NCBI GenBank assembly: GCA_048940645.1 | Contig: JBHLOI010000063.1 | Span: 1-18,491 of the forward strand | Length of the DNA: 18,491 nt | DNA from: Promethearchaeota archaeon | Lineage (GTDB): Archaea; Asgardarchaeota; Lokiarchaeia; Sigyniarchaeales; SOKP01 | Reading direction: 5' to 3' | Part shown: positions 3,568-13,444 of the stretch, one piece after another | How positions within the stretch are numbered: position 1 is the stretch's first letter | Layout of the letters: each line of letters starts with the position of its first letter | The notes under the pieces: generated by a model | What the model saw: the letters and a program-made list of their open reading frames with translations, nothing else | Told to the model about the DNA's origin: nothing | Databases searched by the model: none | Made by a program: the position numbers and the translations under genes

Positions 3568-6500
3568 ATGCAGAATAATGAATTTTTAGCTCAAGAAGCC
3601 CTCAAGTACTTAGAGATAGCTCAGAGATTTGAAGCAGAAGGAAAGGTACAGGAAGCTATTGAAAATTACCAATTAGCTGCTGATAATCTTAAAAAAAGTG
3701 GTTACATGATGCACAGGGTTAGTGAGTTGTATGATAGAATAGAAGGTTTAAAAACCTTCATGAAAGAACAGAGATTATATCAGCATAAACAACTAAGTGC
3801 TCAAATTGAAAAACATCAGGAACAGGCTTTTGTAATAATTGACAGAGCCTCTGAACTAGAGTCAGAGGGAAGTTTTCAAGATGCAATCGAGCGATATAAT
3901 TCTGCTATAAAGTTATTAACTCAAGCTGGGTGGTCTGAGTCCCAGCTACAAAATCTAAAAATGAAGATTGCTTCGCTTACAGATAAGGATAAAACTCAAA
4001 AAACTACTAAAAGTGAAGAGGATATTTCTATACGGCTAACCTCGCAAATAGGAGGGACACCTCAGATAATGGATGCTTTTGGTGAAAAAAAAAGCATCGA
4101 AAAGGCAGAACAACTTAGAAAATATCAAGAAATGAAAGCAAAACAAGAGAAAGCACAAAATGATGCTTTTGCATTTATTGATAATGCTAAATTTCATGAG
4201 AAAAATAAAAAATTTGATGAAGCAATTGAAAATTATGAAAAAGCAGTTGATTTATTAAACTCAATTGGATGGAAGGACCAAACGCAAAATATTAAATTTA
4301 TAATTGAAAAGCTTATAAAGGAAAAAGAGATTCATGAAAGATTTGAAACAAAACAACGAATTGAAGAATCTTCTGTTATTCATGATTCTGAAATTGATTC
4401 CCAAACGCTGCCAGATAGTTCTAAAGTAGTTGAATTTGAGTATAAAAAAAGATCTGAGGAAGATATACAAATTGAAGCATTTAATTTGATTGATTTTGCT
4501 AAAAAACTAGAAAGGGAAAAGGACTACACAAAAGCGATCGAGAAATTTCAAAGGGCTATAGAATTATTTAAATCGATTGAATGGGATTCATATATCCAAC
4601 CTATTATGAATTTTATAGATAGTATAAAGGAAAAGCAAAATAGTGAAGAAAAGTTAGTGGAAGTAAGAAAAAAGAGAGAAGATAATCTTGAAAAAATACA
4701 AGATAGGTTGTTTCTAAAAGAAAAAGAACATGTTATACAGACAGCTAAAGATTTTGAAGTACAACATAGAGAATATGTACAAAAAAGACAATCTCAATTG
4801 GAAAAAGAGAGTCAATTTTTTACCTTTTTAGATAAAGCCGATAATAAACTCCAGCAAAATCAAGATTTTGAGGGAGCAATCAAAGAATATCAAAATGCCT
4901 TAGAAGTACTCCTTGACCTTGGATCTGGTTGGGAATCTTATGTCCCTACTATAAAAACAACCATCGATAGTGTGAAAAAACTAAAAGAAACACAATATGA
5001 AAAGGAGTTTGAAGAACAGAAGAAATTAGAAGAAAAATCAAAACAAGAATTAGAGTTTCAGAAGCAAATTTCAACTCTATTAGAAAGAGAACGCAAAAAG
5101 TTAAAAGAAAAACAAATTGAAATCCAATTAGATAAGGATAAGCAAGTATATAGCGAACAACGTAAAGATTCCGCATTTAACGCGCTAGATGAAGCCCAAA
5201 AGTTTATTAAAATGGGGAATTTAGATAAGGCAATTTTAGCTTATCAAAATGCAGCTAATATCTTTACGAGTATTCAATGGCAAGAAGAGGTACCTCTGAT
5301 TGAAGCATCGATTAAAGAATTAGAAAATATGAAGAATGAAATTGAGATAAAAAAACAAAAGGATATCCAAAGAGAAATTGAAAGACAAAAAGAAGAATAT
5401 GATTTTCAAGAAAGAATTGCTACTCAGTTACGGACAGAACGAGAGAGGCTGAAAAGGAAAGAAGTAAAAAGAAGAGAAAAAGATAAAGAGTTAGAATATC
5501 GGCAGAAAAGGAAGGAGGATGCTTTCAAGATACTAGATCAAGCTCAAAAATTTATCAATGAAGCTAATTTTGATAAAGCAATTGAATGCTATCATATTGT
5601 AGCTAATATCTTTGCAGAAATTCAATGGAATGATGAGGTAGAATTTATAGGGAATGCAATAATAGAAATCGAGAATCAAAAAAGGGATCTAATTTTAAAG
5701 AAGCAAGGAGAGCTACAGAAAAAGCTTGATAGAGAAAAGAGAGAAAAAGAATTTCAGATAAAGATTGTAGAGCAGCTAAAATCACAAAAAGAAATGTTTA
5801 AACAAAAAGCACTGAAATTGAGAGATAAAAGTAAAGAATTAGAATATCGTGAACAAAAGAGAGATGAGGCATTTATTCTGATAGAAAAGGCACAAAATTA
5901 TCTTTCATTAGGTAGATTTAACGAAGCTATTGATACGTATAGGAATGTTGCTAACATTTTTGCCCAGATACAATGGAAGGAGGAAATCCCTATTATACAC
6001 AATGCAATCATGGAGATCGAGACAAAAAAGAAGGAAAAGGAATTATTGAAACAAAAACGCATTGAGGAAGGTATTAAAAAAGAATTGGAAGATTTTAAAT
6101 TTTTTAACAGGATAAAGCGCCAAAGAGAAATTGAAATTAAAAAAATGCAACAAGAACAAGAAATACTGGCTAAAAAGGAAAGGTTATCTGCTCATCAGCT
6201 TATTAAACAAGCAGAAGCATTTAAGTTAATTGATAAAGGGGATTCTTTACTGAATCAAGAAAGATTTGAAGATGCCATGATAATATATCAACAAGCTCTG
6301 GATTTATTATATGGTATTGGTTGGAAGGGCGGGTATGTAAAATTAATTCGAGAAACAATTAATGAAATTAATGTCAAACAAGAAGAAAAAGAAAAAGCAA
6401 AGCTAAGAGAAAAAGAGCTAGCAAGAAAACAAATCGAAGAAGAGAGAAAATTTGAAATGAAACTTGCCGAGCAAATGAACAGAGAAAGGGAAAGGTTTAA

Positions 6501-8520
6501 AGGAAAGAAAATTGAAATTGAAAAGAAAGAAGTACTAATGGAACAAATAAATTCACTTAAAATCGAAGCGTTTGATTTAATGGATAAAGCAGAGGATTTA
6601 TTGAATATAGGAATGTATGAACAAGCAATTGAACTTTATCACCAAGCAGAATTAGTTTTAAATGAAATTCAGTACCCTACGGATCCTATTAAAGAATTGA
6701 TTTCAAATATCCAAGAGAAGAAAAGAGAAAAGGATTTAGCTAGCCAATATGATTTAGAACAACTTATGAGAAAAGAGGAGCAGGAAAAAATTTTTCAGCA
6801 AAGAATTGTAGAATTTATGAACTTTGAGAGAGAAAAGATAAAAGATAAACAAATTGAGCTAAGAAAACGTGAAATAGCTAAAGAATATATGAATAAAAGA
6901 AAAGAAGATGCTTTTGATCTTTTAGAACAAGCTGAAAGCTTTTTAAAAGCAGCTCTATATGATAAAGCACTCGAATTTTATCATAGTGCAGAATTAATTT
7001 TAAATGAAATTCAATTTCCAACTGAATCTGTACGAGAAATGATTTTAAAAGTCACTGATAAGAAAAGAGAGCAAGAATTAGAGAAACAAAATGAATTAGA
7101 GATCAAAATTCAAAAAGAGAAGGAGCAGCAAAAATTTAATAAAAGATTAGCTGAGCAAATAAGTAGGGAAAAATCAAGGCTAAAAGAAAAGAAAATCAAA
7201 ATTCAAGAAATAGAAAAAGTTAAAGCCAAAGTGGAAGGAAAGAAAGAAGAGGCATTTAAAATTTTAGACGATGCTGAAAATTTCATTAAAACAAAAGATT
7301 ATGATAAGGCAATAAATATTTACAGGCAAGTTATGTTAATTTTAAATGAAATACAATTTCCAACTGATTCTATTACTGAGATGATAGTTAAAGTAGAAAA
7401 TCTTAAAAAACAGAAATTTGTTCAACAACAAGCAAAATTAAAAAGAGAATTAGCAAAAATTGAAGAAGAAAAGAAATTAAGAGTACTAATCGAAGAAAGA
7501 AGAAAATATGAAAAGGAAAAGCAATTAGCACAAAAAATAGCACTTCAAGAACGAGAAAGGTTGGTTCAAGAACAATTAAGCAATAGAGAGGCGGCATATT
7601 CTCTTTTAGAAAAAGCAGGTAATTATCTTATAAGAAAATTCCCTGATTATGATAAAGCTATTTCTTTATATAATCAGGCAAGGAATATTTTAGCTGAAAA
7701 GGTCGGTTGGGAACCGGAAATAAATAGTATTAGTAGTTTAATAAAGGATTTAGAACTAGAAAAGAAAAATTTAATAGAGAAGAAAAAGCGAGAAGAAAAA
7801 ATACGAATTCAAAGAGAAAGGGAGTATGAAAAATTCCAAGAAGAAATTAGACAGAGACGTGAAGAGTATTTAAGAAGAAAAAGAGATCAACAGAAAAAGA
7901 TGAGCCAATTTCAACAACAACAACAATATGCGAATCAGCTAAAGGATGAAGGGTTAAAATTAATAGATGAGGGAAAGCGTTTAACAATCCATCACGATTT
8001 TGAAAAAGCTTATAGTTGTTTTGAACAAGCTATTGCAAAATTTAACAAAATTGGTTGGAATGAGCAAACTAAATTCATTGAGAAAGAAATTGAAAATACT
8101 AGATTACTCCAAGAAAAAGTAAAAGAAGAAGAAATAAGAATACAAAAAATTTATGAAGAATTAGTAAGTAAAAAACGTTTAGAAGAAATTCGATTAAAGG
8201 AAAAAGAGATAAAAATCCAAGAAACTATCGACGAATTAAGCGATATGACTGGTGAAGTTTCACAATTAATCAAAAAACAAATTAAAGAACAAAAATCAAG
8301 ACAAAAAGAAGAAAAAGAAATAGAGAAAAAAGCGGCAAAAAAGTTTAGAAAAGATATGAAGGAATTAATCAATTTAAAGCAAGAACTTATAAATGAAATT
8401 AAGAGAACTAAAGAGGATGCTGCTAAAAATAGAGAAGAAATGCAGCTATCAAAGGATAAAGAAAAAGCTGATGAAATTAAAGAGATGTTAAAGGATTTAA
8501 CTAAAAAGAAGAAGAAGTAA
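3568..8520 (+). CDS. 1650-aa repeat protein: 14 MIT/TPR-like helical modules alternating with charged coiled-coil segments
   Basis: Consensus AF-x-x-[IL]-[DE]-x-A...[FY]-[DE]-x-AI-x-x-Y-x-x-A-x-x-[IL]-[LF]-x-x-I-x-[WFY] recurs 14 times, separated by E/K/R/Q-rich spacers. No TM segment or signal peptide is evident. Confidence 0.85.
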   Translation: MQNNEFLAQEALKYLEIAQRFEAEGKVQEAIENYQLAADNLKKSGYMMHRVSELYDRIEGLKTFMKEQRLYQHKQLSAQIEKHQEQAFVIIDRASELESEGSFQDAIERYNSAIKLLTQAGWSESQLQNLKMKIASLTDKDKTQKTTKSEEDISIRLTSQIGGTPQIMDAFGEKKSIEKAEQLRKYQEMKAKQEKAQNDAFAFIDNAKFHEKNKKFDEAIENYEKAVDLLNSIGWKDQTQNIKFIIEKLIKEKEIHERFETKQRIEESSVIHDSEIDSQTLPDSSKVVEFEYKKRSEEDIQIEAFNLIDFAKKLEREKDYTKAIEKFQRAIELFKSIEWDSYIQPIMNFIDSIKEKQNSEEKLVEVRKKREDNLEKIQDRLFLKEKEHVIQTAKDFEVQHREYVQKRQSQLEKESQFFTFLDKADNKLQQNQDFEGAIKEYQNALEVLLDLGSGWESYVPTIKTTIDSVKKLKETQYEKEFEEQKKLEEKSKQELEFQKQISTLLERERKKLKEKQIEIQLDKDKQVYSEQRKDSAFNALDEAQKFIKMGNLDKAILAYQNAANIFTSIQWQEEVPLIEASIKELENMKNEIEIKKQKDIQREIERQKEEYDFQERIATQLRTERERLKRKEVKRREKDKELEYRQKRKEDAFKILDQAQKFINEANFDKAIECYHIVANIFAEIQWNDEVEFIGNAIIEIENQKRDLILKKQGELQKKLDREKREKEFQIKIVEQLKSQKEMFKQKALKLRDKSKELEYREQKRDEAFILIEKAQNYLSLGRFNEAIDTYRNVANIFAQIQWKEEIPIIHNAIMEIETKKKEKELLKQKRIEEGIKKELEDFKFFNRIKRQREIEIKKMQQEQEILAKKERLSAHQLIKQAEAFKLIDKGDSLLNQERFEDAMIIYQQALDLLYGIGWKGGYVKLIRETINEINVKQEEKEKAKLREKELARKQIEEERKFEMKLAEQMNRERERFKGKKIEIEKKEVLMEQINSLKIEAFDLMDKAEDLLNIGMYEQAIELYHQAELVLNEIQYPTDPIKELISNIQEKKREKDLASQYDLEQLMRKEEQEKIFQQRIVEFMNFEREKIKDKQIELRKREIAKEYMNKRKEDAFDLLEQAESFLKAALYDKALEFYHSAELILNEIQFPTESVREMILKVTDKKREQELEKQNELEIKIQKEKEQQKFNKRLAEQISREKSRLKEKKIKIQEIEKVKAKVEGKKEEAFKILDDAENFIKTKDYDKAINIYRQVMLILNEIQFPTDSITEMIVKVENLKKQKFVQQQAKLKRELAKIEEEKKLRVLIEERRKYEKEKQLAQKIALQERERLVQEQLSNREAAYSLLEKAGNYLIRKFPDYDKAISLYNQARNILAEKVGWEPEINSISSLIKDLELEKKNLIEKKKREEKIRIQREREYEKFQEEIRQRREEYLRRKRDQQKKMSQFQQQQQYANQLKDEGLKLIDEGKRLTIHHDFEKAYSCFEQAIAKFNKIGWNEQTKFIEKEIENTRLLQEKVKEEEIRIQKIYEELVSKKRLEEIRLKEKEIKIQETIDELSDMTGEVSQLIKKQIKEQKSRQKEEKEIEKKAAKKFRKDMKELINLKQELINEIKRTKEDAAKNREEMQLSKDKEKADEIKEMLKDLTKKKKK

Positions 8521-8629
8521 TTATCCTTTATTACTTATTAATATTTTATTTCAATATAACACTAAAAGAATTTATATTCTTTTGATATGTTAATATACTC
8601 ATATTACAATTAAACATTGCCATTTTAAA

Positions 8630-10204
8630 ATGATGGAACATAAAGAGGATGTTTTAAAATCTCGAATGTATGCAAGGCAACAATTAATTGACGGTTGGGA
8701 CCAACAAGCTCTTGAAAGTTCATGTATAATGATTGTTGGGGTTGGAGCTCTTGGATGTGAAATAGCTAAAGATTTTGCTTTAATGGGAATAGGGAAGTTA
8801 ATCTTAATAGATTTAGATACTATAGAAACTTCAAACTTATCACGGCAGATGTTATTTAGACCTGGAGATGAAGGTCGACCTAAAGCAGAGGTAGCCGCAG
8901 AACGGTTAAAAGAAATGAACCCATATTTAGAGGTTGATTTTTATTTTGAAAAGTTACAAAAATTACCCATGTCTGTATATGAAGAATCAGATGTAATTAT
9001 TGCCGCACTAGATAATTTTAACGCACGATTAGATTTAAATAAGATATGTCTTCGCTTGAAAAAGCCAATGATTGAAGGGGGAACTGTAGGTTTCGAGGGC
9101 CACGTCCAAATTGTAATACCTGAAGGATCTGGAATTGATTATAAAAATAGAGAGATTGAAATTGAAAAAATTGTAGAGAATAAGATGTGGGAAGTGGAAA
9201 GCCCTGAATATGTAGATGCTTTAAAAGAAATTGAAATCTTAGAGGATTTAATCGAGAAAATTAAAAGAGAAAAAATTGAACCCTTAAGAGACTACATTAA
9301 AAAGCAAGTTGAGATAGATTTTGATAAGGATTATGCCGAAAAAATTTTAAATTTAACTCCCTGTTATCGATGTCTTGTACCAATTCCTCCTGCTGATGAT
9401 AAATTAGTTGCAGCATGTACATTAAAAGGATTACCTAGGAATAGAAATCATTGTGTAATAAAAGCTGAAGTAAATTTTGAAAAAGAATATGGATTTAAAC
9501 CGGATATGAATGTGGATGACGACGTTATGAAGTTAAAACAAATTGCACAGGATGAATTGGAAGCATTAAGACAGCGAGTGTTTAATGAGAATGTTCCTCC
9601 TGAAAAATTGGAAACTCTTAGCCCTGAAGAAATCCAAGATTGGAAAAATAATATTAAGGAAACATTTGGTACGGATTTTAAGTTTGAAGAGATGGAGAAT
9701 ATACTTGGAAATAAAATTGCTGCTGTCCAATCAGTCAGTTCAGTAATAGCAAGTATACAATCACAAGAGGCATTAAAAATATTGTTAAGATTACATGGTA
9801 GAAATGTCGGACCTCCAATGGATCCTCCCTATGTTAATTATAATGGCGTGTATGGTCAATTTGATCACCTTGACATCATCAAGAGAGAAAATTGTCTAGC
9901 TTGTGGCAAAATAGAAGGTGAAGAGAACATACAAATAGTTGTTCCATTTGATGCTGATATCGGATATATTTTTAAAGCCATGAGAATAATTGGTCATGAA
10001 TTAGAACCGATATTATGGATGATTACAAACCCAGTCAACAAAGAATTATATTGGAATCCCTACATACCTTCTATGAAAGACCCTAATATTAAGTTAACAA
10101 CTTTCAAAATTAAAAATAATGATGTTATTACGTTAACACCATTAGGTCAAGCGAAGGTAGATTCAGATATTAAAAAATACAATGTAATTATAACCTACAT
10201 GTGA
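8630..10204 (+). CDS. Ubiquitin-like activating enzyme E1 (ThiF/MoeB fold, Uba2/Uba3-like catalytic-Cys type)
   Basis: YARQ, GVGALGCE, DLDTIETSNLSRQMLF, ALDNFNAR, IEGGTVGFEGHVQ. Zn pairs CYRC and CLAC. Catalytic motif ACTLKGLPRNRNHC (Cys263, codon 9416-9418). Probable C-terminal ubiquitin-fold domain. Confidence 0.9.
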   Translation: MMEHKEDVLKSRMYARQQLIDGWDQQALESSCIMIVGVGALGCEIAKDFALMGIGKLILIDLDTIETSNLSRQMLFRPGDEGRPKAEVAAERLKEMNPYLEVDFYFEKLQKLPMSVYEESDVIIAALDNFNARLDLNKICLRLKKPMIEGGTVGFEGHVQIVIPEGSGIDYKNREIEIEKIVENKMWEVESPEYVDALKEIEILEDLIEKIKREKIEPLRDYIKKQVEIDFDKDYAEKILNLTPCYRCLVPIPPADDKLVAACTLKGLPRNRNHCVIKAEVNFEKEYGFKPDMNVDDDVMKLKQIAQDELEALRQRVFNENVPPEKLETLSPEEIQDWKNNIKETFGTDFKFEEMENILGNKIAAVQSVSSVIASIQSQEALKILLRLHGRNVGPPMDPPYVNYNGVYGQFDHLDIIKRENCLACGKIEGEENIQIVVPFDADIGYIFKAMRIIGHELEPILWMITNPVNKELYWNPYIPSMKDPNIKLTTFKIKNNDVITLTPLGQAKVDSDIKKYNVIITYM

Positions 10205-10265
10205 GTTCCATAAGTTACTTTTTTATCATTTATCCTAAATATATTTAAAATTTTAATTTTAAGCA

Positions 10266-11096
10266 ATGATCAGACTAGTTTCAAGAGAAGAATTAGATTT
10301 TGCACTTAAATTAACAGAAGTTGAAGAATGGGGGACTTCTAAAGAAGAGCTAGAAGATATCTTTTTATTTTCCCCGCAAGGTTTTTTTATATCTGAATCT
10401 AAGGGCATACTTAATGGCATTGTTTCTACTGCATTTTATGGATCATTTGGAGTTATAGGAAATTTAATCGTTGTAAAAAAATTTAGACGGCAAGGATTTG
10501 GAAGAAATTTGATGAAATATGCGATTGATTACTTAAAATCTAAAGGTGCTAGAACAATTTTGCTTGATAGCGTACCCCAGATAATTTCTTTATACAAAAT
10601 GTTAGATTTTCAACCTATTTGTCGCTCTTTAAGATTAAAAGGGAATTTAGATTCCAAACCTGTTGAAAATGTGCGTTTAATGACTTTAAAAGATATTGAC
10701 AAAGTAATACAATTGGATCGAAAGCATTTTAGAGGAGATAGAGGATATTTTTTAAAAAGAAGATTTTCTCTTCATCCAAATTTATGTCATGTTTTAATTC
10801 GAAAGGACAAATTAAATGGATTTATAATGGGCATTCCAAAAGAGGACTGTATATTAGTGGGTCCTTGGATTGTCAATCCAAAAGAAGCTAAACCGCAACT
10901 ATTGCTTCAGAGTTTAGCAAATAATGTAAATTTAAATAAATTTCGATTAGGGATCCTCGAAAATAATAAGAGAGCGGTTAAATTAGCTCAAGATCTTAAT
11001 TTTGCCGAATACTTTTATTCAATAAGAATGATATATGGCAAGGCTTTTACCCATACTAATGGATTATTTGCTATAGCTGGTCCAGATAGAGGGTAG
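10266..11096 (+). CDS. GNAT-family N-acetyltransferase (tandem GNAT domains)
   Basis: Acetyl-CoA motif A 'LIVVKKFRRQGFGRNLM', then 'LYKMLDF'. A second degenerate GNAT domain carries 'LDRKHFRGDRGYFL' and 'VGPW'. Confidence 0.85.
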   Translation: MIRLVSREELDFALKLTEVEEWGTSKEELEDIFLFSPQGFFISESKGILNGIVSTAFYGSFGVIGNLIVVKKFRRQGFGRNLMKYAIDYLKSKGARTILLDSVPQIISLYKMLDFQPICRSLRLKGNLDSKPVENVRLMTLKDIDKVIQLDRKHFRGDRGYFLKRRFSLHPNLCHVLIRKDKLNGFIMGIPKEDCILVGPWIVNPKEAKPQLLLQSLANNVNLNKFRLGILENNKRAVKLAQDLNFAEYFYSIRMIYGKAFTHTNGLFAIAGPDRG

Positions 11097-11100
11097 ATAT

Positions 11101-11715
11101 TCAAGATTCTTTTCTAAATTCATTTACTAATTCTATTAATTCATCAACAAGTAAGGATTCTATCCCAGCATTTTGACCAGTAAGTAAATCTTTGTCCAAG
11201 TCTCCTATAAATACCATCTCTTCTTTTTTTACACCAAAGTACTCCTTAATTTTTAATAAACCTTCAGGTTCTGGTTTCCATTTTCTTATATCCTCTCTTC
11301 CTACAATAAAATCTATCTTTTCATAAATATTTGCTAATTTTAAGGATTCTATTATGGTTCTTCGCGTATTCAATGAAAGAACTGCTAATTTTGTATCTTT
11401 TTGGACTCCAAATAAACCTAAATTATTAATAAAAAAAATAGAATCCTCAATTGGAATATTTTCCTTTATATTTTCTAATTCATATCTTCTAATTATTTCA
11501 ATATTTTTTCTTAGTTCTTCCTCATCATTTCTTTCTACAATATTACTTAAACATGCTGAGATACTTCTAAATTGACATTCTTCTCGATAGTGCTCAGCAT
11601 ATCTTTCTGTCAAATCATCTTTTAAAGAACGCCAATCAGCAGCTAATTTTACAATTGTACCATCTAAATCAAATACTATTACTTTTTTATTTTTAAAAGA
11701 AAGTTTAGATTTCAT
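11101..11715 (-). CDS. HAD-superfamily hydrolase (phosphoglycolate-phosphatase-like)
   Basis: Motif I FDLDGT, motif II LSLN, KPEPEG, motif IV FIGDLDKDLLTGQNAGI. Confidence 0.9.
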   Translation of the reverse strand: MKSKLSFKNKKVIVFDLDGTIVKLAADWRSLKDDLTERYAEHYREECQFRSISACLSNIVERNDEEELRKNIEIIRRYELENIKENIPIEDSIFFINNLGLFGVQKDTKLAVLSLNTRRTIIESLKLANIYEKIDFIVGREDIRKWKPEPEGLLKIKEYFGVKKEEMVFIGDLDKDLLTGQNAGIESLLVDELIELVNEFRKES

Positions 11716-11821
11716 TGTATTAATTGATATGAAAAAACTCTATTTTTGAAAAATAAAATGTGAATTAACAAAAAAGGTTTTAGGTATAATAATAAAATAA
11801 GCACTTTTCACGCAGTTAATT

Positions 11822-11954
11822 TAGTATTTATGGCTCGATTTAATCGAGAAATTTCGAGACTCGTTAAATTGTGTGCACGAAGATCATTTTTGTGTGTAAT
11901 AGTGTGTGTAACAGCTACTTTGTAGCCGTATTATACGGAAAAATATAAATACTA
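11822..11954 (+). ncRNA. Candidate structured RNA / cis-regulatory element (multibranch, five hairpins)
   Basis: A perfect 10-bp closing stem (TAGTATTTAT 11822-31 / ATAAATACTA 11945-54) encloses five consecutive hairpins. G-U pairs favour the + strand. Family not recognised. Confidence 0.35.
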
Positions 11955-12005
11955 TTAAGGAATTAACATCTAATAATTTATCTAATAACTTAATAGGGAT
12001 TAATT

Positions 12006-12263
12006 ATGTTTTCTCTAGAAAATATTCTTAAAATACTCCTAGAGAAGGGGTATACATTTGAGGATATTAAAATTGAATTTCATAATGAGAAAATTTATAT
12101 AGAATTAAATAAACCACGCTATTTTATTGTAATAGATTTAGGGAAAAAAAGAATTCAATATTATTTCAGCGAACAAATTGGAAGGAAAGACGTTAGACTC
12201 ATTTCCAAAGCAGATTTACTTGATAAAATAGATGATTTATTATTCATATTTCAGCTTTTTTAA
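12006..12263 (+). CDS. Small hypothetical protein (85 aa)
   Basis: ATG-started ORF preceded by AGGGA. It overlaps no other gene and has a plausible alpha/beta pattern, but no motif was recognised. Confidence 0.5.
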   Translation: MFSLENILKILLEKGYTFEDIKIEFHNEKIYIELNKPRYFIVIDLGKKRIQYYFSEQIGRKDVRLISKADLLDKIDDLLFIFQLF

Positions 12264-12411
12264 AGAAATTGCTTTTGATGACACAAATATTTATGCTTAA
12301 CTCTGCATCCAATTCAAGTTCTTCATTTTTTATGCATTTTAAACCTTCTTTGGTGCAAATGGGAACATTTCTGATAAAAACATATTTAAATAGTCAGAAT
12401 AAATAAAGCTA

Positions 12412-12476
12412 CCGAAAACCTCGCAGGTTTAATTCTCCTATAACAATAATTTATTTATAGGTCTCATTTTTTTCGG
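12412..12476 (-). promoter_or_regulatory. Candidate SECIS-like stem-loop in the 3' UTR of the TGA-containing gene
   Basis: Minus strand reads CCGAAAA-AA-AUGA-GA-CCUAUAA-AUAAAUUAUUG-UUAUAGG-A-GA-AUUAAACCUGCGAGG-UUUUCGG. This gives two 7-bp helices, AUGA/GA flanking the inner helix, and AAA in the apical part. It begins 11 nt after the TAA stop. The geometry is not perfectly canonical. Confidence 0.35.
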
Positions 12477-12487
12477 GTTTAGGATTT

Positions 12488-12703
12488 TTACTCTCTATCT
12501 GTAATAACGTAGATTATGAGCAAAATTGCTACAATAATGGTAGATACTCCAAATGCTATGTAAATATTGCCAGTTCGATAATATCAGCCCCCTCATCCTC
12601 ACAACTGTAAACCTTTAGCAGAAAAGTAAGAGAAGAAACTCACCGTTGTAAAAAAAATTATCAAAGCAAATAGAATATTCTTTGTTAGTTTGTTTTTTTC
12701 CAT
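12488..12703 (-). CDS. Small two-TM membrane protein with three in-frame TGA codons (candidate selenoprotein)
   Basis: Manual translation: MEKNKLTKNILFALIIFFTTVSFFSYFSAKGLQL*G*GG*YYRTGNIYIAFGVSTIIVAILLIIYVITDRE-TAA. TGA codons lie at 12601-12599, 12595-12593 and 12586-12584. AAGGA lies 6 nt upstream of the ATG. Hydrophobic helices flank the TGA cluster on both sides. Confidence 0.65.
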
Positions 12704-12934
12704 CTTTATTCCTTAAAATTTGTTAAATCGTTTGGTTATTATAATTTAAGTAAAGTTGCCATTTAATACTTTTGACAAATCTATTAAATTCTAAATTCGG
12801 ATAAAAAATTTTATTTTGATTGATTTTTGAATAGCTATTTCAATTTACCTACACTATTGGGGTAAAGTACTTAAAAAATAAAATTTCATAAATTCAAAAA
12901 ATGAAAATAGGAAAGATAAAATACAAAAAATTAA

Positions 12935-13444
12935 TTAATCCATAGCATATTTCTTAGTCCAAGAAGCTGCTTTAGCTTCAAACTTCTTTAGAGCTCTAAA
13001 ATATTGTTCACCAGCTTCATGGTTTAAAGGGTCTCCAGGATTAAAGAAAGGAGGATCTAAATGCATCATCATCTTCAAGGCTTCTATGATGTTGGTTAGG
13101 GTTTTGCTTGGTGTCCATCCAGAAGCTCCTGTTCCAGCATCAACTTTTCCGACAAGATCAGGATTAATTAAATCTAAACAAATATTTAATTTGCCTGGAG
13201 GAATTGATGAATCGATATTAGGATGCCACATTAATGTAACAGCGTAAGCATAGGGAGGAGCAAAAGGATAATTATCTGGAAATTTTACTTCAAATACAAA
13301 TCTGCCTTTAGCATATGGTGTTCCTTCCTTCCCTAGAATTGTTAGCCTTAAATGGTCAATACTGCGCCCCCAAGGTTCAATGATAACGAATTGATCGTCC
13401 TTATAGGCTTCTAATGCTTCAGCATAGTCAGTTTCTTCTCTCAC
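12935..13444 (-). CDS. Ubiquitin-conjugating enzyme E2 (UBC fold)
   Basis: GTPYAKGRF, FPDNYPFAPP, WHPNI, NICLDLI (catalytic Cys89, codon 13180-13178), WTPSKTL, PLNHEAG, A..WTKKYA. GTG start, with an in-frame TAA 5 codons upstream. Confidence 0.93.
   Translation of the reverse strand: MREETDYAEALEAYKDDQFVIIEPWGRSIDHLRLTILGKEGTPYAKGRFVFEVKFPDNYPFAPPYAYAVTLMWHPNIDSSIPPGKLNICLDLINPDLVGKVDAGTGASGWTPSKTLTNIIEALKMMMHLDPPFFNPGDPLNHEAGEQYFRALKKFEAKAASWTKKYAMD

Follow-up and report, generated by a model that had tools for sequence, protein, structure and literature searches.

The window (the whole 18,491-nt stretch of DNA analysed, contig C121 of the 3.83-Mb, 30% GC, 89.6% complete genome G000) very likely carries a stand-alone gene for a 71-residue helical-hairpin membrane selenoprotein, whose in-frame UGA codons are predicted to be read as selenocysteine (Sec) via a lokiSECIS element in the 3′-UTR. 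That the gene is Sec-decoded is a prediction that we make with high confidence. Our verdict is that the gene belongs to a real, unpublished membrane selenoprotein family that uses a known recoding system, and that the locus itself is an unusual three-Sec allele.

The gene and its predicted product

The initial annotation of the window, which left the strand unstated, had proposed a hidden 71-codon frame with three in-frame TGA codons and two transmembrane (TM) helices. Such a frame is present on the minus strand (ATG at 12703, TAA at 12488–12490) and is preceded by the SD-like AAGGA noted in that annotation (Table 1); translation of the plus strand of 12488–12703 revealed no such frame. TGA had also rightly been taken for a normal stop, as it ends 288 of the 2199 long ORFs of G000. 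AlphaFold2, supplied with a 49-row alignment of homologs, predicts a helical hairpin with helices at residues 3–34 and 44–70 and a disordered loop at residues 35–43 (mean pLDDT 85).

Table 1. Features of the predicted selenoprotein locus in window coordinates
Feature	Position	Strand	Basis or remark
71-codon ORF, ATG..TAA, predicted two-helix membrane selenoprotein	12488..12703	-	translation, homolog alignment, AlphaFold2
SD-like AAGGA	12710..12714	-	6 nt 5′ of ATG; also in the G019 ortholog
TM1, residues ~10-28, after Lys-rich N-terminus	12620..12676	-	hydropathy, AlphaFold2
T8 run within TM1	12650..12657	-	T9 (frameshift) in the G019 ortholog
TGA codon 35, family-conserved putative Sec, followed by Gly	12599..12601	-	TGA in 44/49 homologs
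TGA codon 37, lineage-specific extra putative Sec, within 5-codon insertion	12593..12595	-	common only to G019
TGA codon 40, lineage-specific extra putative Sec	12584..12586	-	common only to G019
TM2, residues ~49-67, in frame 3′ of the TGAs	12503..12559	-	hydropathy, alignment, AlphaFold2
lokiSECIS: AUGA; stem with two mismatches topped by 7 Watson-Crick pairs; A-rich loop of 11 nt with G as its last base; AA on 3′ side	12433..12467	-	consensus, covariation, model scores
Second small hairpin 3′ of SECIS core	12416..12430	-	common to VhuD, PrxL and SelD 3′-UTRs
Upstream region conserved with both G019 copies	12704..12860	-	probably the gene's own promoter (inferred role)
~590-bp cassette (upstream region, ORF and SECIS)	12296..12888	.	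lacking from the corresponding site of G013 and G022

As a check on chance, we counted the ATG frames of this size in G000 that hold one or more TGAs between two TM-like segments. There are five, and the 71-codon ORF is the only one of them with a SECIS behind it. An independently assembled species, 85% identical in DNA, has the three TGAs as well. Scans of Pfam and NCBIfam matched the window protein to no family, and the weak matches of other family members in these databases are scattered and inconsistent. A Foldseek search against the PDB, for which a two-helix hairpin is an uninformative query, gave no significant match; the leads that a natural Sec-less homolog gave as query in the ESM Atlas were all below 0.9, fell into bacteriocin-immunity-like clusters and are not used as evidence.

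The SECIS element and the Sec machinery

The initial annotation had proposed Sec recoding without having seen a SECIS, and the proposal is borne out by the element found here, by a full decoding machinery and by conservation of both the TGA and the coding sequence 3′ of it. The lokiSECIS starts 20 nt 3′ of the ORF stop. The published lokiSECIS has a 9-position stem and an 11-nt loop followed by GA or AA (PMC4989117); the window element has these features and is an AA variant with one extra mismatch. It possesses the minor AUGA_AA core with an A-A mismatch at the stem base and, when folded alone, does no better than shuffled sequences (z −0.6).

Comparative evidence for the structure comes from the elements of 17 homologs, in which pairing extends to 94% of cells and compensatory changes are seen at 7 of 12 pairs; the pairing score was reached by none of 500 shuffles and slid registers came nowhere near it either, although it was from those same 17 sequences that the structure had been derived. 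A separate SECIS model was built from 19 SECIS elements of VhuD genes only, the window sequence being outside the training set. This model assigned 49.3 bits to the window element (E 4.9e-9 per genome), although the test is partly circular, since the family model had served to pick the VhuD elements. The score falls inside the 37–73 bit range of the SECIS elements of the VhuD, HdrA-VhuD and PrxL genes of G000, and the window element ranks third among the seven strong matches of the VhuD-only model in this genome; of the other six, four lie behind known selenoprotein genes, one behind a one-helix candidate (see below) and one is unexplained. Rfam, which does not cover the Loki element, reports no SECIS at the locus.

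Several other elements were encountered during these searches. A strong SECIS of 47 bits at G000:C11:63396-63462 (+), with no obvious TGA-containing ORF under the filter used, possibly belongs to a short VhuU or to another unlisted selenoprotein. Two pattern-only candidates, C57:33009 (+) and C102:2664 (+), lie behind TGA-containing frames of G000, one with two adjacent TGAs; both are absent from the matches of the two covariance models and are probably due to chance. In the window and in the 3′-UTRs of VhuD, PrxL and SelD genes (L062, L181-L213), a second hairpin with covarying pairs closely follows the SECIS core on its 3′ side, as it does at nearly all such cores of the archaeal family; no description of it was found in the sections consulted of the SECIS papers PMC4989117 and PMC11227280.

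The genome encodes every component that Sec recoding, as envisaged in the initial annotation, would call for. A tRNA-Sec gene (TCA anticodon, 62 bits, above the Rfam cut-off) adjoins the gene for SepSecS, and an EFSec gene is located on the same contig; PSTK is present, and SelD has an in-frame TGA of its own. EFSec and PSTK are clear best matches, though below the curated NCBIfam cut-offs. Known selenoprotein genes (VhuD, HdrA-VhuD and PrxL), each with SECIS elements, are found in the same genome.

Homologs and conservation of the UGA codon

Iterated protein and SECIS searches yielded 49 aligned homologs, of which 29 species-level genomes supply 43 and other contigs the remaining 6, in addition to the G019 ortholog. 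The homologs are distributed over 30 genomes, all in two genera of the window's own archaeal family; a search of 400 genomes of the phylum gave no convincing homolog in any other family. Matches outside family f1 were all weak and lay mostly inside long membrane proteins, and neither word-index protein searches nor a related-loci search found any homologs.

Family members have ~60–85 residues and two helices. A TGA is located ~5 residues past TM1 in 44/49 (median Sec residue 33), a share inflated by the fact that many homologs were found via their SECIS. The residue before this TGA is Ala, Ser or Gly in 37 of the 44, and Gly follows it in 35. Exactly one TGA is present in 41/49 homologs and none in five. 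Neither TGG nor a Cys codon occurs at the codon-35 site in any of the 49 aligned homologs. Two homologs have GGA there, one base away from TGA, and the remaining Sec-less members have lost or remodelled the loop. A selenoprotein without a clear Cys homolog at the Sec site is unusual.

Downstream of the TGA, no TAA or TAG interrupts helix 2 and the frame remains open to its end, with TAA or TAG as the terminal stop in 45/49. The pN/pS ratio is 0.48 after the TGA versus 0.60 before it (uncorrected values from 13 non-independent pairs, some at or above 1) and 0.11–0.12 in the two best-conserved ortholog pairs; judged from these ratios, the second helix is under purifying selection. Both the conserved TGA and the downstream coding signal to which the initial annotation had looked for support are therefore seen in the homologs. 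Since 44/49 keep the TGA at the codon-35 site, with selection acting on TM2, and 41/49 have a single TGA, we regard the family as a mono-Sec one.

In genus g11, the genes form tandem arrays in which some copies share one SECIS. The G141 array comprises at least seven TGA- or Gly-type copies and two weak Cys-pair paralogs. The latter, at L175:3957-4154 (-) and L175:6220-6417 (-), are TGA-less candidates with C-x4-C in the loop, scoring 15 bits each, and are possibly the family's Cys counterparts. The SECIS is decayed or absent (13 bits or no match) behind the Sec-less copies of G012 and G019, and several other homologs (G131, L143) have lost Sec and kept a strong SECIS.

The same alignment bears on the alternative, raised in the initial annotation, that the gene came from a genetic-code-4 donor and TGA stands for Trp. 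This reading would give an aromatic loop, well suited to a membrane interface, and the site is indeed labelled W by gene callers. However, each of the five database proteins with W at this site that were traced proved to contain a TGA read by a code-4 gene call, and the 22 true Trp residues of the family are all encoded by TGG, as elsewhere in the same genes. Because TGA and TGG are not interchangeable at the site and a SECIS lies downstream, we reject this origin. Random nonsense mutation, about which the initial annotation was already sceptical as pseudogene decay, is contradicted by a TGA position fixed across two genera and by the SECIS that follows. Taken together, the Trp and nonsense readings are exceedingly improbable.

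A family of ~135-residue four-helix proteins with a TGG-encoded Trp in the first loop reached E~1e-5 against a W-coded profile. It has no SECIS and was not counted as homologous; its score probably stems from hydrophobic composition together with W. These conserved membrane proteins, weakly similar to the profile, are found at L241-L250, and the member scanned has no Pfam match above the cut-off.

Origin and fate of the three-UGA loop

The U-G-U-G-G-U loop is confined to G000 and G019. Exact and degenerate DNA scans for this three-TGA loop retrieved G019 alone among the genomes, and eight metagenome matches were unrelated. Compared with the nearest one-Sec homologs, the extra Sec codons lie within a five-codon insertion, and in G019 the six-base Sec-Gly unit is repeated perfectly in tandem, which makes local duplication the simplest origin. 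UGA37 and UGA40 are thus probably lineage-specific products of duplication of Sec-Gly codons. A paralog in G129 (L180:224-448 (-)) has three TGAs, 4 and 5 apart, with a SECIS of its own; by alignment, its loop is of independent origin, so that multi-Sec loops arose twice. The CxCxxC-like loop put forward in the initial annotation is not a conserved triad, because the three-Sec spacing is restricted to G000 and G019 and the G129 loop is spaced otherwise.

UGA37 and UGA40 could be tolerated passengers. Any UGA located 5′ of a working SECIS would be read, so that duplications and TGY- or TGG-to-TGA changes may drift in while only Sec35 matters. We would put this possibility somewhat short of an even chance; as far as codon 35 is concerned, it is compatible with the main reading. 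It agrees with the presence of exactly one Sec in most of the family, with the different spacing of the three-Sec loops (+2/+5 in G000), with the hexamer repeat of G019 and with an apparent Cys-to-Sec change at an unconserved TM2 position, where the G149 gene has TGT and the G141 ortholog TGA. Each extra UGA should, however, cost read-through efficiency, and the double origin of multi-Sec loops is not what mere tolerance would suggest. The loop is also more conserved than the rest of the gene: codons 35–51 differ at 1/51 nt between G000 and G019 versus 23/162 elsewhere (Fisher p=0.019, a post hoc test on one pair), a difference that weakly supports selection on the loop.

The state of the G019 ortholog raises the further question of whether the G000 three-TGA copy is decaying or barely expressed, the family as such being real. 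In G019, the ninth T causes a +1 frameshift before the loop, and the frameshifted copy adjoins a duplicate without loop and SECIS; the extra T may reflect an error of assembly, phase variation or decay. Absence of the cassette in close relatives and the weaker variant of SECIS in the window would also fit decay. Yet the G000 frame is intact and its loop conserved, and AUGA_AA cores serve VhuD genes in G000 as well and are among the published variants (PMC4989117, PMC11227280). We therefore consider decay of the G000 copy quite unlikely.

Genomic context

Between the E2 and HAD genes, where the cassette lies in G000, both G013 and G022 lack it, and G030 is also without the gene there. Neighbouring genes differ across the family, with no fixed downstream gene or partner, and provide no functional hint. 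Given the absence in relatives and the variable neighbours, the nearby ubiquitin E1 and E2 genes are unlikely to be functional partners. These belong to a region (window 3568-13444) that encodes a 1650-residue helical repeat protein, a UBA-type E1, GNAT, HAD and E2, with no ubiquitin gene in view. An 85-residue ORF of no known family at 12006-12263 (+) is convergent with the selenoprotein gene; it is conserved in G013 and replaced in G019 by the gene for a 245-residue membrane protein.

Proposed mechanism and function

Sequence comparison establishes that the ORF and the decoding machinery are present, that a SECIS follows and that UGA35 is conserved. We propose that the 3′-UTR lokiSECIS directs host EFSec and tRNA-Sec to read UGA35, UGA37 and UGA40 as Sec. 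We infer that all three are read through in vivo because one lokiSECIS serves several UGAs in HdrA-VhuD (PMC4989117).

Lys and Arg make up 98 of 336 N-terminal and 109 of 320 C-terminal residues, compared with 38 of 743 loop residues (0.29, 0.34 and 0.05 per residue). As both termini are basic, they are probably cytoplasmic by the positive-inside rule, which would place the Sec loop on the outer face of the membrane. UGA35 would encode the ancestral lone Sec of the family, with no resolving Cys, and its outward reactive selenol would most plausibly bind soft metals or metalloids or exchange with extracellular sulfur or selenium species. One-Sec forms could act between neighbouring copies through a diselenide or a metal bridge; the three-Sec lineage, its Sec-Gly codons having been duplicated, could act within one loop. 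A metal- or redox-related function at the cell surface is a tentative assignment.

Alternatively, TM1 might act as a signal peptide that is removed immediately ahead of Sec. Sec, perhaps lipidated, would then form the N-terminus of a peptide of ~35 residues held in the membrane by TM2. The Ala, Ser or Gly at position −1 (37/44), together with Ile, Leu or Val at −3 in 27/44, would be in keeping with a lipobox as well as with cleavage by signal peptidase I. The lipobox motif, though matched by many homologs, is not matched by the window protein, which has Leu at −1. Lipobox-Cys proteins are not enriched in G000 (2 seen, 2.3 expected), and few lipoproteins are predicted in Asgard archaea (PMC12462473). 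Cleavage before Sec is thus very unlikely.

A different function would be that of a selenium-dependent switch. At low selenium, translation would stop at UGA35 to give a peptide of 34 residues with one helix, and only a sufficient supply would allow the whole hairpin to be made. Three UGAs would sharpen the threshold, or else the protein would simply store selenium. Cys never replaces Sec, though one base away, and Gly (GGA) or deletion of the loop does, as if the UGA and not thiol-like chemistry mattered; the gene also has its own upstream region and SECIS. On the other hand, there is no fixed downstream gene or partner to regulate, and the conserved Gly after Sec and the small residue before it suggest a structural or chemical site. 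We consider a switch unlikely.

Our most far-reaching picture, to which we give a somewhat better though still low chance, is that these are fast-evolving, arrayed cell-surface selenium peptides of Lokiarchaeia in which Sec is not replaceable by Cys, and that the three-selenol loop selected in the G000 lineage (with ArsR-like n, n+2, n+5 spacing) serves as a chelator of Hg, As or Cu or makes for a sharp response to selenium. If this is true, archaea would have a type of selenoprotein for which they offer no described example so far.

Significance

A 2024 survey of Asgard archaea listed seven selenoprotein families found by homology to known selenoproteins, a procedure by which families without known relatives are missed; a 2026 review counts 119 prokaryotic selenoprotein families, 11 of them in archaea. 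The two-helix membrane family fits none in either source, and, within the openly accessible literature, the three-Sec form appears to be new. What the locus adds is a three-Sec allele, the finding that loops with several Sec arose twice independently, and cases in which Sec and SECIS were lost together. Three UGAs in six codons under one short SECIS make the allele a compact natural reporter, suited to questions about the action of the Loki SECIS in the absence of SBP2 and about the processivity of Sec insertion in Asgard archaea.

Small membrane selenoproteins are otherwise best known from the eukaryotic ER (SELENOK, SELENOS). The SECIS-first search reveals that one Lokiarchaeial family also has such proteins, which does not imply a relation to SELENOK or SELENOS.

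Comparison with known systems

The window protein shares with SELENOK and SELENOS the small size, the membrane location and, in the one-Sec form of the family, a lone Sec next to Gly without a CxxU motif; SELENOK dimerises through a diselenide (PMC9344019). SELENOK and SELENOS, however, have one helix and a Sec near the cytosolic C-terminus, whereas the 71-residue protein has two helices and a mid-chain Sec in a loop predicted to lie outside, and Pfam and NCBIfam scans detected no similarity to them. A second group of Lokiarchaeial membrane selenoprotein candidates, whose layout recalls SELENOK and SELENOS, is represented in G000 by C120:~11535-11796 (+), which encodes one helix, a Gly-rich linker and then Sec, often as U-x-C, and has its own SECIS. 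Members occur also at L172, L178, L189, L190, L195-L197, L202, L206 and L214 and are absent from published lists; comparison with the two-helix family by hhalign gave a probability of 25%, over TM1 only, and no homology is claimed.

The type 1 As(III) site of R773 ArsR (Cys32, Cys34 and Cys37; PMC11868830) has the identical n, n+2, n+5 ligand spacing. ArsR, in contrast, is a soluble DNA-binding repressor without homology to the window protein, and the spacing is unconserved in the Sec family, so that the likeness is an analogy only. The selenobacteriocin (TIGR04081, SGUG motif; PMC13188914) is likewise a small multi-Sec peptide with a U-G motif, but a bacterial one, and its NCBIfam model matched none of the 49 family members.

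No homology to the seven published Asgard families (SelD, FrhA/VhuU, HdrA, FrhD/VhuD, Prx-like, AhpF-N and DsbA-like) and no Pfam or NCBIfam match to them was detected. The closest parallel is in recoding: the Lokiarchaeial HdrA-VhuD, VhuU and PrxL genes with a lokiSECIS or type I eSECIS-like element (PMC4989117, PMC11227280) have the same in-frame UGA, the same AUGA..GA/AA core, the same 11-nt A-rich loop ending in G just past the stop and several UGAs per SECIS. Their products are soluble redox enzymes that have Cys counterparts and carry CxU, CxxU or UxxC motifs, whereas the 71-residue two-helix protein is a predicted membrane protein without a resolving Cys, patchy in distribution and encoded in some relatives by tandem arrays.
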